A DNA stretch of 20,696 nt from a virus, in the UHGV virus genome UHGV-0115176. One strand, given 5' to 3'. The notes beneath the pieces were generated by a model. It was given only the letters and a program-made list of their open reading frames with translations, searched no databases and had not been told where the DNA came from. The translations under genes and the position numbers were made by a program. The number at the start of each line of letters is the position of its first letter. Position 1 is the first letter of the stretch. Shown here piece after piece: positions 1,221 to 14,728 of the stretch.

Positions 1221-1714
1221 CCCGGAAGCCCGGGGATCGTAATCTGCAGCTGGTTAGCCAGGGAGTTAATCTCAGCGACCAACACTGGCTTCGTATAGCG
1301 CCATGCTGCCAGCCCTTGTCCGCAGAAGCTCGCCATGTCTTTCTTCTGGTCAAACTCATGACATTTCATGTTGAGCTGCGCACTTAAGCTGTTGCGATGC
1401 TGAAGTTCTCCGGTGAAGTAGTCATCGAGGACTTTATAGGCCGCGTACTTGAACCCGGGGTTTAACCAAGCCGCATAATCGTAAGCAACAAACTTCCCGC
1501 CATATGTTCCACCGTGTACACCGCGCTCAGTAAAAACCACAGATTCGTGGTTTTTCTCCAGCTCGGCTAAGAACTCTTTGGTCTGCTTGTTTCGCAGGTA
1601 GTGGTAAGGCGATTCAGATTCACTTTTACCACTGGCTTTCCACATATCAGTGAGGCAGATCATGCCATCTTCACCGATACGAATTGGTTGATTGAAGAGG
1701 GTTAATGATTTCAT
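1217..1714 (-). CDS. KilA-N domain DNA-binding protein
   Basis: 165 aa; N-terminus MKSLTLFNQPIRIGEDGMICLTDMWKASGK matches the KilA-N/APSES-type fold pattern from memory; ATG start at 1712-1714. Confidence 0.65.
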   Translation of the reverse strand: MKSLTLFNQPIRIGEDGMICLTDMWKASGKSESESPYHYLRNKQTKEFLAELEKNHESVVFTERGVHGGTYGGKFVAYDYAAWLNPGFKYAAYKVLDDYFTGELQHRNSLSAQLNMKCHEFDQKKDMASFCGQGLAAWRYTKPVLVAEINSLANQLQITIPGLPG

Positions 1715-10682: not shown

Positions 10683-10903
10683 GCTGCACCTCCGAGATGC
10701 TTCATGTTTTTTCCGGAGCGAAAGGCTATAAGCGGCATACTGACGCGGTAATTACGGCCCAGCGGTTCACAAACCACCTTCTGACATTCACGGTCAACCA
10801 GGCTAACACGTAGAACATGCCCTGCAGGCGTGGTGTACCACTGACCCGGACGAGGACAACGGAAAGTATGATTGGTAAACCGTTTGAAAATATTCCGGAT
10901 CAT
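10679..10903 (-). CDS. Hypothetical small protein (74 aa) with three Cys (possible zinc-ribbon-like)
   Basis: ORF-track ORF; 4-nt overlaps with both neighbours (ends 10900/10903 and 10679/10682) imply a translationally coupled operon member. Confidence 0.55.
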   Translation of the reverse strand: MIRNIFKRFTNHTFRCPRPGQWYTTPAGHVLRVSLVDRECQKVVCEPLGRNYRVSMPLIAFRSGKNMKHLGGAA

Positions 10904-12060
10904 TTGCGCCCCCTTACCTCTGAAGGGTTCAGCGACAAATTTATGAGACTGGCCAGTAGCGCCGCGTCGTTGATGCGGTCATACAGACTTACAGCCAGCG
11001 GGGATTCGGCTTTTGCCAACATGGGATAAAGCTGCTGCAGCCAGACCTTGTGGATTACCGACAGGTGGGAGTAAAGCACGCTGGCGTTATCTGCGGCATC
11101 GCTCAGCGTGGATGGCTTTGAAAGCAGTTTTTCCATCTGGTTAAAGGCATTTATGTATGCCTCTTTGAACCGGGCAGCACGTTTACCCGTGAAACCCATA
11201 GCAAGAAACGCAAAACCGTCTCGTGTGATTTGATAGCAAGGGAGCTTGCGTGTACCACCGTTCGGTTGATTTACCGAAATCGATGTCTCCGCAAAATTGC
11301 GGGCACAAAACTCTGGGGAACAATCCAGAGTGCGGATCTTTTTCAGCACATCGTCGTGACGCTTGGAGAAGAAGTTGGCAACAGCCAAAGAAGTGGTAAC
11401 GGCCTGGCCGTTGTCAATGGTGATTTCAGGTTGAGTGAGGGCTGGGATCGTAGCCATGATGGCAGCCTCCGTTGACAGTGAAAAACTTCCACCACCGGAA
11501 ACGCCAATTTCACTGGTGGTGAACTGGACGGGGTTGGCGTAACCGGCGTCAACGGAGACCGGCGCACCTTTCGGTGCCCCCGCCCAGCCCACCATAATCT
11601 GGATGTGAGCAAATGCGGACGATAAAAAAGACGCTGGCGCGTCATACATCGCCGTTGACAATTTCAGGACGCCAATCCCGGCACCCGCTTTATAAGGTGC
11701 CTGAGCAGTGTAACGTCCCGGAATTGCAGAATCAATATGCTGGTGGTCCTTCACACTCAACAAAATCACGCCTGAATTTCCACAAAGGACTAAAGCACTC
11801 ATGCGGGTAGTCTTTGCGAAGATAGATAACGCGCTGTGTTTCTGGCTCCCAACGAATAACATGGACATAAAGCCCTCTTCCGTCACGAAACCAGCGGTTA
11901 AGTTCCTGCACAACTCGCCCCCCACAGTCAGGTAAAGTTCTCTGTGGTTACTTACAGCCAGGTGATTTGGTAATCTGCATTCATGCCGTAACAACAGGTG
12001 TTCAGCGACGCTGACCACCAGCTGTTGCGACAAACGGTTATTTGCCGTTAAACTATTCAT
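10900..12060 (-). CDS. Rha-family phage regulatory protein, long ORF with a ~200-codon N-terminal extension (canonical Rha start at 11457)
   Basis: The segment from the internal ATG at 11455-11457 (GGAGG SD 8 nt upstream) reads MATIPALTQPEITIDNGQAVTTSLAVANFFSKRHDDVLKKIRTLD...ITRDGFAFLAMGFTGKRAARFKEAYINAFN, a Rha-type N-terminus. The same frame stays open for 201 further codons upstream to an ATG at 12058-12060 that overlaps the preceding gene's stop. Confidence 0.55.
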   Translation of the reverse strand: MNSLTANNRLSQQLVVSVAEHLLLRHECRLPNHLAVSNHRELYLTVGGELCRNLTAGFVTEEGFMSMLFVGSQKHSALSIFAKTTRMSALVLCGNSGVILLSVKDHQHIDSAIPGRYTAQAPYKAGAGIGVLKLSTAMYDAPASFLSSAFAHIQIMVGWAGAPKGAPVSVDAGYANPVQFTTSEIGVSGGGSFSLSTEAAIMATIPALTQPEITIDNGQAVTTSLAVANFFSKRHDDVLKKIRTLDCSPEFCARNFAETSISVNQPNGGTRKLPCYQITRDGFAFLAMGFTGKRAARFKEAYINAFNQMEKLLSKPSTLSDAADNASVLYSHLSVIHKVWLQQLYPMLAKAESPLAVSLYDRINDAALLASLINLSLNPSEVRGRK

Positions 12061-12948: not shown

Positions 12949-13623
12949 ATGAAAACAGTCCATGACATCCGGCGGTCTAACGCCAGAAAACTGAGAGATG
13001 GTGTTGGCGGGAATTCTTCCTTTGCCACCATGATTGATCGCGAGCCAACCCAGACCAGCAGGTTTATGGGAGATGGTGCTACTAAAAATATCGGTGACAG
13101 CATGGCACGGCACATCGAAAAATGTTTCGACCTGCCTGTCGGATGGCTTGATCAAGAACACCAGACAACAAACATCACAAAAAAACCTGATGTTTCAATT
13201 ACTAACAAACAAATAACGTTAGTCCCTGTCATATCATGGGTACAGGCCGGAGCATGGAAAGAAGTTGGCTATTCTGAGGTTGATTTGAGCACAGCAGAAA
13301 CTTATCCCTGCCCTGTACCCTGTGGCGAAATGACTTATATCTTGCGGGTGATTGGTGATTCAATGATTGATGAGTACCGCCCGGGAGACATGATTTTTGT
13401 AGATCCTGAAGTCCCTGCCTGCCACGGTGACGACGTTATTGCATTGATGCACGATACGGGCGAAACCACCTTTAAGCGGTTGATAGAAGATGGAACACAG
13501 CGTTACCTCAAAGCATTAAACCCAAACTGGCCTGAACCTTACATTAAGATCAACGGTAATTGCTCTATAATTGGTACAGTAATTTTCTCAGGAAAACCAA
13601 GAAGATACAAAATAAAGGCCTAA
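12949..13623 (+). CDS. CI-like prophage repressor (N-terminal HTH, C-terminal S24 LexA-type autopeptidase)
   Basis: 224 aa; HTH-like N-terminus (ARKLRDGVGGNSSFATMIDREPTQTSRFMGDGATKNIGDSMARHIEKCF); C-terminal S24 signature with Ser in VIGDSM and Lys in TTFKRL; divergent from cro. Confidence 0.85.
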   Translation: MKTVHDIRRSNARKLRDGVGGNSSFATMIDREPTQTSRFMGDGATKNIGDSMARHIEKCFDLPVGWLDQEHQTTNITKKPDVSITNKQITLVPVISWVQAGAWKEVGYSEVDLSTAETYPCPVPCGEMTYILRVIGDSMIDEYRPGDMIFVDPEVPACHGDDVIALMHDTGETTFKRLIEDGTQRYLKALNPNWPEPYIKINGNCSIIGTVIFSGKPRRYKIKA

Positions 13624-13634
13624 TCAATATTTAT

Positions 13635-13658
13635 AACCTGCTTCGGCAGGTTTTTTTA
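13635..13658 (+). terminator. Intrinsic terminator after the repressor gene
   Basis: AACCTGC-TTCG-GCAGGTT (7-bp stem, tetraloop) followed by T7 (13651-13657), 12 nt after the cI stop. Confidence 0.75.
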
Positions 13659-13661
13659 TAC

Positions 13662-13694
13662 TTGACAATGTACCCTTGAGATACATAATGTATC
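13662..13694 (+). promoter_or_regulatory. pL-like promoter (TTGACA-N16-CATAAT) with overlapping operator dyads
   Basis: Consensus -35 TTGACA (13662-13667) and -10 CATAAT (13684-13689); dyad ATGTA (13668-13672) / TACAT (13682-13686) and perfect palindrome GATACATAATGTATC (13680-13694); the 23-mer 13666-13688 matches OR-a at 16 of 23 positions. Confidence 0.6.
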
Positions 13695-14181
13695 TAAAAG
13701 AAACATGCCACAGGCAAGATTAAACAAAATTTGGTTGTAACACGGCGTATGGCACATGCGTCGTTAGCGGTCTGGGGACGTTAAAGGGGACAATCCACTC
13801 CTTGCTCGGGCAAACAAACCAGGTAGCCGGAATGTGCAAGTCAATGATGATGCTGATAAGACGCCTAACCAGCGTGGCGATTCGGTTTGACGCCTGGGAA
13901 GAGACCAGGACGCAACGATGAGAGCATTGACGAGCAAGGCATAAGTGCTGGTTCAATTCCAGACAGTCCCATTCAGATGGGAGGGTTGGGCAGGGAAAAG
14001 GTCCGTTCGATTCGGACACCGGCAATGCTCTCAGCGTTGTGGTGAATGCGCAGGCTGATGCGCGAAAGACATTGCAGCTATTGCGGAAAAGAGCTGTTCG
14101 GCGGGGCAATCAAACGCCCGTGAGAGTCTGAAATAACCGCAAGCCGGAGATCAGCACCGGCACCACAACAGCCACTGCTTT

Positions 14182-14228
14182 GGCGGTACCAGTTTGTACA
14201 CTTGCTTCCGGCTGGTACCGCTCTTTTT
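14182..14228 (+). terminator. Strong intrinsic terminator inside the pL leader, ~140 nt before the first early-left gene
   Basis: Stem GGCGGTACCAG (14182-14192) / CTGGTACCGCT (14212-14222), 10-11 bp and GC-rich, followed by CTTTTT (14223-14228); the 19-nt loop contains TTGTACA. Confidence 0.6.
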
Positions 14229-14365
14229 ACAAAACAGAGAAGAGCATCACCGGACGACGGGCTCATAACCCAATCCATCCGGGCGGCTGTCACCGCAGGT
14301 GTTCTTCTCTGTTTTGTGGAGAAACCAACCGACCTTGCAGGGTCGGTATGATGAGGAGCAGCAAA

Positions 14366-14728
14366 ATGGCTAGCGTACGCAGTACTGATGTGCAGGTATT
14401 TATCGTAGAACTGGACGGCGGCGTATTTGAAACCAAACTCGGCGCAGTTCTCAGTGAAGTCGCTTCCGGTGTGATGAACACGAAAAACAAAGGTAAAGTC
14501 TCGGTCAATCTGGACATCGAACCGTTTGATGAGAACCGTGTGAAAATCAAACACAAACTCTCATATGTTCGCCCGACTAACCGCGGGAAAATTTCCGAAG
14601 AAGACACCACCGAAACACCGATGTATGTCAATCGCGGTGGTCGCCTGACTATTCTGCAGGAAGACCAGGGACAATTACTGACTCTTGCCGGTGAACCTGA
14701 CGGAAAACTACGCGCAGCAGGTCATTAA
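14366..14728 (+). CDS. yfdP: YfdP-like early protein (120 aa), first gene of the leftward early operon
   Basis: ATG at 14366 with GAGGAG SD 7 nt upstream (MASVRSTDVQVFIVELDGGVFETKLGAV...); the upstream in-frame portion of ORF 14180..14728 is Cys/Arg/Pro-rich and looks noncoding. Identity inferred mainly from synteny with the clearer yfdQ/yfdR/yfdS matches. Confidence 0.6.
   Translation: MASVRSTDVQVFIVELDGGVFETKLGAVLSEVASGVMNTKNKGKVSVNLDIEPFDENRVKIKHKLSYVRPTNRGKISEEDTTETPMYVNRGGRLTILQEDQGQLLTLAGEPDGKLRAAGH

Follow-up and report, generated by a model that had tools for sequence, protein, structure and literature searches.

The window analysed here, UHGV virus genome UHGV-0115176, is a stretch of 20,696 nucleotides which corresponds to the immunity and early-left region of a lambdoid prophage of the SfV/cdtI/mEp460 type and was found with 100% identity in the chromosome of E. 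coli EC9682. Between the early promoter pL and the first early-left gene lies a leader of about 0.67 kb (13694-14365), which had been singled out in an earlier note made from the sequence alone. This leader contains a conserved pseudoknotted RNA element, designated module A, which very probably represents a previously unannotated RNA family, restricted to temperate phages of the Enterobacterales.

The early-left leader and module A

A cI-like repressor of the S24 type is encoded upstream of the leader (12949-13623, plus strand), and cro-, cII- and Rha/Ash-type genes are located on the opposite strand. Directly behind the repressor terminator, the consensus promoter with operator dyads that the note had described was confirmed: pL matches the consensus at 11 of 12 positions, an identical promoter carries an annotation in phage Ayreon, and two operator dyads overlap and follow it (Table 1). 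Three further dyads of the same type were found between cro and cI. Six sites were counted against 2.15 expected, a number reached in 2 of 100 shuffles. Transcription from pL would start at approximately 13696.

No plus-strand open reading frame (ORF) of 60 amino acids or more had been seen in the leader, and the first credible gene had been placed at ATG 14366. Plus-strand ORFs within 13694-14365 were indeed only 30 to 52 amino acids long, and the gene starting at 14366 behind the Shine-Dalgarno (SD) sequence was identified as yfdP-like (phrog_204, 2.5e-48), the upstream extension of ORF 14180-14728 being spurious. No N-like gene was detected in the 7-kb early-left operon of the window, which reaches xis and int, again in agreement with the note; nor was a strong internal plus-strand promoter found in this operon (yfdP/Q/R-like genes to xis and int) behind the predicted terminator T and the helix module I1. 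The GC enrichment of the leader was modest (0.51-0.575, against 0.34-0.49 in the flanks). Hairpins are frequent: the predicted 537-nt transcript as a whole gave a fold z-score of -2.24, and the most structured sub-domains were 13910-14042 (z -5.25) and 14229-14365 (z -5.26). The strong terminator announced at 14182-14228 was recovered and is comparatively conserved; a consensus terminator scan missed it only because its loop is longer than 8 nt.

Table 1. Features of the early-left leader, and the element A-prime of other phages. Positions refer to the window unless a phage is named.
Feature	Position	Strand	Description
Intrinsic terminator of the cI-like repressor gene	13635-13652	+	7-bp stem, TTCG loop, T-run; upstream ORF is Pfam Peptidase_S24
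pL promoter	13662-13689	+	TTGACA-16-CATAAT; 11/12 consensus positions; directly 3' of the cI terminator
Two 19-bp operator dyads	13668-13686 and 13688-13706		ATGTAY-N7-RTACAT; first perfect, second with one mismatch; overlap and follow pL
Module A, conserved pseudoknotted RNA core	13742-13909	+	about 170 nt; five helices, at least one pseudoknot, covariation
Module A, helix P1	13742-47/13759-64	+	covariation
Module A, possible pseudoknot PK1	13752-57/13832-37	+	GCACAT/ATGTGC; both strands near-invariant
Module A, helix P2	13767-75/13819-27	+	encloses a variable hairpin; covariation
Module A, variable hairpin	13841-13860	+	
Module A, helix Hd	13861-64/13872-75	+	covariation
Module A, pseudoknot PK2	13867-70/13884-87	+	covariation
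Module A, helix He	13893-97/13905-09	+	all five pairs show double changes
Helix module B	13913-14039	+	16-20-bp closing helix; arms 13913-13932 and 14020-14039, 90% complementary
tRNA-like cassette C	14039-14169	+	acceptor-like helix GTGGTG/CACCAC, extendable to GTTGTGGTG/CACCACAAC
Predicted intrinsic terminator T	14182-14228	+	13-bp stem, 15-nt loop, UCUUUUU; -21.2 kcal/mol, z -3.4
Helix module I1	14229-14320	+	hairpin of at least 20 bp ending UGUUUUGUGG / TGTTTTGTGGAGAA; terminator-like on both strands
Small hairpin, SD and start codon of the yfdP-like first gene	14328-14368	+	hairpin 14328-14347, SD GAGGAG 14353-14358, ATG 14366
A-prime	SfV (L129) about 1000-1075; ST64B (L243) about 1245-1315		AGGCAGGACGCCCACGAAGTAGCCGCC-(5-bp covarying stem)-GGCRTAYGAAR-(stem)-ATGATTCG

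A covariance model (CM) of module A, R1, matched 13722-13920 with 170.6 bits (E 8e-52; E-values of our CMs are rough, as calibration was shortened). This was the sole copy in the window, and related phage regions likewise contained one copy each. The exact 18-mer GTAGCCGGAATGTGCAAG of module A was found in at least 120 IMG/VR contigs. Because exact words served to retrieve the loci, part of the invariance of these words is built in, and a second, independent anchor in the 3' half was used as control: it yielded at least 120 further contigs, and the 18-mer was still present in 107 of 123.

Ninety distinct variants of module A were aligned (alignment A2) and analyzed under a model of five helices and two pseudoknots. 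In this alignment 95.7% of the cells were paired, compared with 86.9% in shuffles and 28-43% when partners were slid, and both sides had changed in 16 of the 32 pairs; the observed values were reached by none of 500 shuffles. Clear double changes were found at 13747-13759 (GC 52 / AU 36), 13773-13821 (CG 48 / UA 41), 13862-13874 and 13864-13872. Pseudoknot PK2 also covaries (CG 68 / AU 20), and in one variant the change to GGTC/GACC is fully compensatory. PK1 is near-invariant, also with the independent anchor, apart from rare singletons which broke the pairing three times and kept it twice; because its strands never vary otherwise, it counts only as a possible pseudoknot. The unpaired stretches CCGGAATGTGCAAG and TATGGCACATG were almost invariant even when loci were retrieved through the independent anchor.

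G-U pairs fall on the plus strand (for example 13745-13761). The lengths of the 90 variants are spread 35/40/15 over the three remainders modulo 3, variability is flat with codon phase (0.21/0.21/0.20), and a Pfam search of the module A region gave no match. The conservation and covariation of the segment across hundreds of phages are beyond chance. It is therefore very probable that 13694-14365 is a non-coding, modular early transcript from the cI-controlled pL, with module A as its constant part.

Module A is carried by at least 200 viral contigs, by P1/P7 and by epsilon15-like and lambdoid phages. Of 5426 complete E. coli genomes, 1857 contain it, and it is never annotated there; O104:H4 2011C-3493 and O145:H28 RM13514 are examples of strains that have the element. 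Shiga-toxin phages also have it, as do many prophages of Klebsiella, Salmonella and Citrobacter. Among 27 genome loci with the exact 18-mer, 23 were confirmed by the CM, all in Enterobacterales, and the other four were chance matches. As to copy number, there are up to five copies in an E. coli genome, and plasmids account for 488 of the 2518 matching places; two or three copies were counted in individual genomes of Phytobacter, Citrobacter and Kosakonia.

In unrelated backbones, the first conserved element to follow a repressor-type promoter, at a distance of 12-125 nt, is module A: this was seen at pL of several lambdoid immunity types, in the HK97-like mEp390, and in epsilon15-like morons, where an operator dyad covers the -10 region. 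Of 127 loci, 50 have a cI-like repressor gene upstream in the same orientation. A tRNA gene is present within 1.5 kb in 47 of the 127, always on the strand of module A. It is one of two kinds: tRNA-Ile2/Met(CAT), which ends about 14 nt before module A in P1-like loci, or tRNA-Arg(TCT) at the end of the helix that follows module A, the 3' arm of which joins the first G of the tRNA with a 0-nt junction. Module A moves as a moron among unrelated genomes, and the first genes downstream belong to at least 14 unrelated families. The strand of the nearest downstream ORF was left out of account, since spurious ORFs over the G+C-rich RNA confound it. No N-like protein was found among ten of these families, and none is annotated in Stx2a_1447 or mEp390. 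Phage ZX5 has module A and its helix behind the promoter, then tRNA-Arg, T1, T2 and the cargo. T2, a canonical terminator (GCCCGG-TTCG-CCGGGC-ATTTTTT), lies only 17 nt from the cargo ATG, and no promoter intervenes.

Coding sequences for 'hypothetical proteins' cover module A, on either strand, in mEp460, Ayreon and mEp390 (L003 2462-2830; L001 2703-2822; L242 3511-3753), and a minus-strand ORF of 129 amino acids over the leader of the window (13720-14109) matches phrog_36251, of 'unknown function'. These are probably mis-annotations of an RNA gene. No description of module A was found in open-access text, although subscription journals could hold one. A preprint on the Pas small RNA was considered as an earlier description and rejected, its loci being different and in the late region.

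Modules behind module A and elements in its place

Similarity searches showed that the leader is a mosaic, the pieces of which recur separately in very different phages. The segment 13729-13906 matches P1/P7 (about 79%) in the unannotated gap between trnI (tRNA-Ile) and ban; 13742-13928 and 13819-14042 match epsilon15-like podophages directly upstream of tRNA-Arg; 14023-14170 matches Klebsiella and Salmonella phages; and SfV has 14181-14370 only. Among the fetched loci, 13742-13909 was present in 124, 13910-14040 in 8, 14039-14170 in 32, and terminator T with the remainder of the leader in about 37.

A long helix always follows module A. Its tip is variable, 1 to 271 nt long, and T-arm look-alikes are common in it. 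In the window this is helix module B (-55.3 kcal/mol), with arms CAACGATGAGAGCATT / AGTGCTCTCAGCGTTG and two T-arm look-alikes in the tip (13949-13965 and 14001-14017). The arms covary between loci, CAACGATGAGAGCA/TGCTCTCAGCGTTG being replaced by CAACAGGTAAGAGCA/TGCTCTTTCCGTTG, CAACTGAAAGAGCGCGG/CCGCTCTTTTTCAGTTG or GATGATGACT/AGTCATCAGC. Variants with 1-nt bulges defied a single register in the alignment (A6), so covariation was read from the sequences, and eight mis-extracted arm pairs were excluded. The 3' arm ends in GTTG, and the final G is the first base of the next element.

That element is a genuine tRNA-Arg(TCT), with GTGGCATTA as the bases after GTTG, in 46 loci, and a cassette GTGGTGAAT...CACCACAAC like that at 14039-14169 in 53. 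The slot of cassette C is that of the tRNA-Arg gene, with the same starting G after ...GCGTT, the CACCAC-A end and the same downstream sequence. Cassette C (128 nt) contains a D-arm-like hairpin (14048-14064), a branched central arm and a T-arm-like hairpin CCGG-N9-CCGG. No tRNA was recognized here by ARAGORN, run on the window, or by the Rfam tRNA model. T-arm look-alikes, with a stem and a TTCRANT loop, are scattered in helix tips and cassettes of other loci (including L100, L042 and L051), and some cassettes (L051, L087) resemble tRNAs with insertions of 40-50 nt. These observations point to tRNA genes that continue to recombine or decay, or else to deliberate mimicry of the tRNA elbow.

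Of 171 unique contexts, 135 have a hairpin followed by a U-run within 1 kb 3' of module A, and the median distance from the 5' end of module A to the first terminator was 415 nt. The stems of the T family, GGCGGT(variable)...(variable)ACCGCC-TTTTTACAG, covary, and transcripts are predicted to terminate at T. The interval that begins at the tRNA 3' end and closes with T (14167-14228 in the window; 2320-2400 in L006, and equivalents) comprises an AATCACG...CGTGAT hairpin, the motif GCTGTGTGTAGTCTTGGCGGT and the U-tailed terminator, and has the look of an Hfq-type small RNA derived from a tRNA 3' trailer. Beyond T, module I1 resembles helix B (14229-14365 folds with -59.4 kcal/mol); in mEp390 and ST64B a similar helix and then GTGGAGAA are found after the T-like hairpin.

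In SfV and ST64B a C-like cassette, T and I1 are present and module A is absent. At the same pL-proximal junction (13711-13720 in the window) these two phages contain another conserved hairpin element, A-prime. It was found, unannotated, in 45 phage records from Shigella, Salmonella, Yersinia, Pantoea, Pectobacterium and Klebsiella, behind a cI-like gene in all seven records examined, and was matched neither by the CM of module A nor by a CM of put, the antiterminator RNA of HK022. In HK022-type phages the pL-proximal position is occupied by putL. The HK639 record has a putL-like element annotated and no putR, which provides a precedent for one RNA antiterminator per phage. For yfdP/Q/R-type lambdoid phages, which are without N, a put-like antitermination has been guessed (PMC12315714).

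Possible roles of module A

Among the readings of the leader that the earlier note had offered were conditional read-through and a discrete non-coding RNA (ncRNA) of about 540 nt. Both are live, because a non-coding, structured segment follows a repressor-controlled pL, a terminator precedes a promoter-less operon, and N is absent. To this the present analysis adds that the RNA modules are independently mobile, that the core is widespread and occurs also in P1 and epsilon15-like phages, that a tRNA-like cassette occupies a tRNA-Arg slot, and that a second terminator-like hairpin follows T.

We tentatively favour a cis-acting role of module A in transcription elongation, which would enable read-through. 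Nascent module A would fold right after initiation and act on the host elongation complex, and RNA polymerase would thereby cross a long untranslated, Rho-exposed stretch together with the embedded terminators T and I1. Module A would in this way perform, as an unrelated RNA, the task of lambda N/nut or HK022 put, and RNase P would release the tRNA or tRNA-like cassette as cargo at the 0-nt junction between cassette and helix. This reading is ranked first because the layout of promoter, module A, terminator(s) and promoter-less, unrelated genes is recurrent, N is absent, module A is positionally interchangeable with A-prime and put, and its hosts are restricted. The variety of downstream families points to a generic function, and the restriction to Enterobacterales, together with the invariant unpaired CCGGAATGTGCAAG and TATGGCACATG, fits binding to a conserved host machine.

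Several points weigh against this proposal. SfV and ST64B retain T and I1 without module A, hence module A is not the sole way past T and the determinant could sit in the shared parts. In P1, trnI and ban flank module A within an operon, and no terminator follows. Module A is 2.5 times the size of put, with another architecture and no detectable homology, and each phage has it only once, with no copy in the pR operon. Antitermination does not explain why the association with tRNAs is so tight and strand-consistent, and the conserved flanks of the T hairpin suggest that T may be a functional RNA 3' end, so that a stable processed RNA fits these two observations at least as well. In addition, we infer the start site, the termination at T, the contact with RNA polymerase and the processing by RNase P.

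The corresponding alternative, a stand-alone, stable, trans-acting ncRNA, is nearly as likely. The pL transcript, of about 530 nt, would end at T and be processed by RNase P into a 'module A + helix' RNA of about 300 nt, a tRNA-like RNA of about 130 nt and a 3' trailer with the terminator hairpin. A conserved protein or RNA of the host would then be the trans target of module A, leaky termination would account for the expression of the downstream genes, and the closest analogues would be GOLLD and ROOL. The two readings are not mutually exclusive, and a stable RNA explains better both the tRNA linkage (same-strand tRNAs in over a third of the loci, abutting the helix 3' arm without spacer) and the conserved terminator of a unit that has a promoter of its own. 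The mobility of the unit as a moron between unrelated genomes is also in its favour, as is the fact that GOLLD and ROOL are often near tRNA islands (PMC12286853). It accounts less well for the persistence of helix modules of the same kind beyond T as far as the first gene (I1, and the helices of mEp390 and ST64B) and for whole operons, including xis and int, without promoters of their own behind T. The canonical terminator just ahead of the ZX5 cargo start codon is hard to square with simple leakiness, and neither GOLLD nor ROOL was matched in Rfam.

The layout of promoter, conserved pseudoknotted domain, terminator and genes would also suit a riboswitch-like or tRNA-sensing attenuator, in which ligand-bound module A decides on the formation of T; the invariant junction nucleotides could form a binding pocket, and tRNAs are adjacent. 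We consider this improbable: module A and T are separated by a variable distance of at least 270 nt filled with exchangeable cassettes, module A of P1 has no terminator, the downstream genes are functionally unrelated, no alternative pairing partner for the T stem was found beside module A, and no riboswitch or T-box of Rfam was matched. Even less is to be said for antitermination by host Nus factors, of the rrn or lambda-nut type, through boxA-like sequences of the leader and without a part for module A. The consensus sequences are TGCTCTTTAACAA for boxA, CGCTCTTA for lambda boxA and GGTGTGTG for boxC. A boxA-like string, CGCTCTTTTTACAA, is located at 14219-14232, the helix 3' arms TGCTCTTTCC and TGCTCTCAGC, followed by GTTGTGG, resemble boxA plus boxC, and the transcripts are untranslated and carry tRNAs, like rrn operons. 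These stretches are, however, paired in strongly covarying helices or coincide with the U-tract of T, variants such as GTGCGCTTCC and AGTCATCAGC lose the resemblance, and there is neither a boxB hairpin nor N. Because the stretches are paired and variable, we reject boxA/boxC as the main explanation.

Hardly credible, finally, is that the leader belongs to the put family of HK022, as the earlier note had considered, or is a decayed N-like or other protein-coding gene, which had been its alternative. The put RNA contacts the beta' zinc-binding domain and suppresses pausing and termination. The leader has the position of putL in a phage without N, and the words CGGCG...CATGCGTCG..AGCG are common to putL and module A; these are absent from putR and were dismissed as chance words. 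A CM built from seven put sequences (R2) reached at best 6.4 bits (E 3.5) within 13694-14365, compared with 94.6 bits for putL and 53.3 bits for putR, and CM R1 found nothing in HK022 at E up to 10, putL and putR included. Blastn against putL and putR of HK022 returned only words of 9-10 nt (E 0.17-0.67), and the put signature (GAACGGCNCG ... GGCGGGTTCAGGATGAACGGCAAT, with two stems) is absent from the leader. The minus-strand match to phrog_36251 and the coding sequences annotated over this DNA in some phages could speak for a decayed gene; the non-triplet lengths, the lack of codon periodicity and compensatory changes of the RNA type in the helices exclude it, and no Pfam match was obtained.

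In its widest form, the favoured reading would make module A a second RNA-only processive antiterminator class of separate evolutionary origin, or some other RNA that acts directly on the host transcription complex. N-less temperate phages of the Enterobacterales would employ put, A-prime and module A as interchangeable pL-proximal RNA cassettes instead of lambda N/nut, and module A would in addition escort rare-codon tRNA or tRNA-like cargo through terminators. We regard this as possible but less likely than not.

A strongly conserved, pseudoknotted RNA thus lies unannotated in about one third of complete E. coli genomes. For N-less lambdoid phages of the yfdP/Q/R class (PMC12315714), module A and A-prime are testable candidates for the expression of the early-left genes, including int and xis. 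If module A turns out to modify RNA polymerase, the RNA-only antiterminator classes of phages would number only two, and a compact tool for synthetic read-through control would be at hand; if module A acts in trans, it would be an enterobacterial counterpart, in a tractable host, of the tRNA-linked phage RNAs GOLLD and ROOL. Either way the annotation is corrected and RNA databases gain a new family.

Relation to known phage RNAs

The covariance search in the manner of Rfam that the earlier note had recommended did not assign the leader to any family. With Rfam 15 (4227 models) the window yielded only C4 and isrK, both outside the leader; a permissive scan of 13600-14420 gave nothing above 24 bits (thresholds 35-66), and eleven related loci searched in gathering mode gave true tRNAs only. 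HDV-like, glmS, hatchet and twister ribozymes, T-box, tmRNA, RNase P and Y-RNA were rejected, their topologies being unfit by eye and without Rfam match.

The C4 antisense RNA (11512-11599, minus strand, 81 bits) and isrK RNA (11624-11700, minus strand, 62 bits) are located inside ORF 10900-12060 (minus strand), and the Pfam Phage_ASH match of this ORF (amino acids 116-211, approximately nt 11425-11712) overlaps both. Because of this overlap, the N-terminal third of the 'Ash-Rha' ORF probably consists of RNA genes of a P1 immI-like module and not of protein-coding sequence.

The leader occupies the same slot as lambda nutL/N, between pL and the first early-left gene; it shares with it terminators ahead of int and xis and some loose boxA-like strings. 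It differs in having neither an N gene nor boxB, and its boxA-like strings are base-paired and not conserved as such.

The C4 RNA of P1/P7 is made by RNase P, and the stable RNAs of the T4 tRNA cluster mature together with the tRNAs. Like these, module A is a small, structured RNA of phage origin that is transcribed together with tRNAs or tRNA-like elements, and by analogy its ends could be set by tRNA-processing enzymes; there is no sequence relation.

GOLLD and ROOL are phage RNAs described as 'often near tRNA islands', and tRNAs are sometimes found within the GOLLD linker (PMC12286853). The likeness to module A lies in their being phage-borne, in a covarying structure with pseudoknots, in adjacent or enclosed tRNAs (PMC12286853), and in a conserved domain combined with variable linkers. 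In contrast, module A matches neither in Rfam, its core is 170 nt compared with more than 500 nt of conserved structure, and it is directly behind repressor-controlled early promoters. Its hosts are Enterobacterales, whereas those of GOLLD and ROOL are Firmicutes, Actinobacteria or marine organisms. Homo-oligomeric cages are a further mark of the GOLLD/ROOL type.

A weak match to the put CM (12.5-13 bits, E about 0.05) was observed in the pR operon, just downstream of cII, in the window (11965-12058, minus strand) and at the corresponding place in Stx2a_1447 (L241, 3180-3273, minus strand), and may be due to chance. The HK639 record has an 'M3-like RNA' annotated right after cII.

The put RNA of HK022 and HK639 is a cis-acting, protein-independent processive antiterminator which acts on RNA polymerase (PMC9378689). 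Module A shares with it the position just behind pL in an N-less lambdoid phage, the structured nature of the nascent RNA, and the terminators and promoter-less early operon that come next (PMC9378689). Both are found in enterobacterial phages only, and the single copy at pL is as annotated for HK639. The put element is about 70 nt long, with two stem-loops and no pseudoknot, and starts at +2/+3 (putL), whereas module A has about 170 nt, five helices and a covarying pseudoknot and begins about 46 nt after the predicted start. Unlike put, module A is also present in P1 and in epsilon15-like morons and is linked to tRNAs. Module A may thus be put-like in function, not in ancestry.

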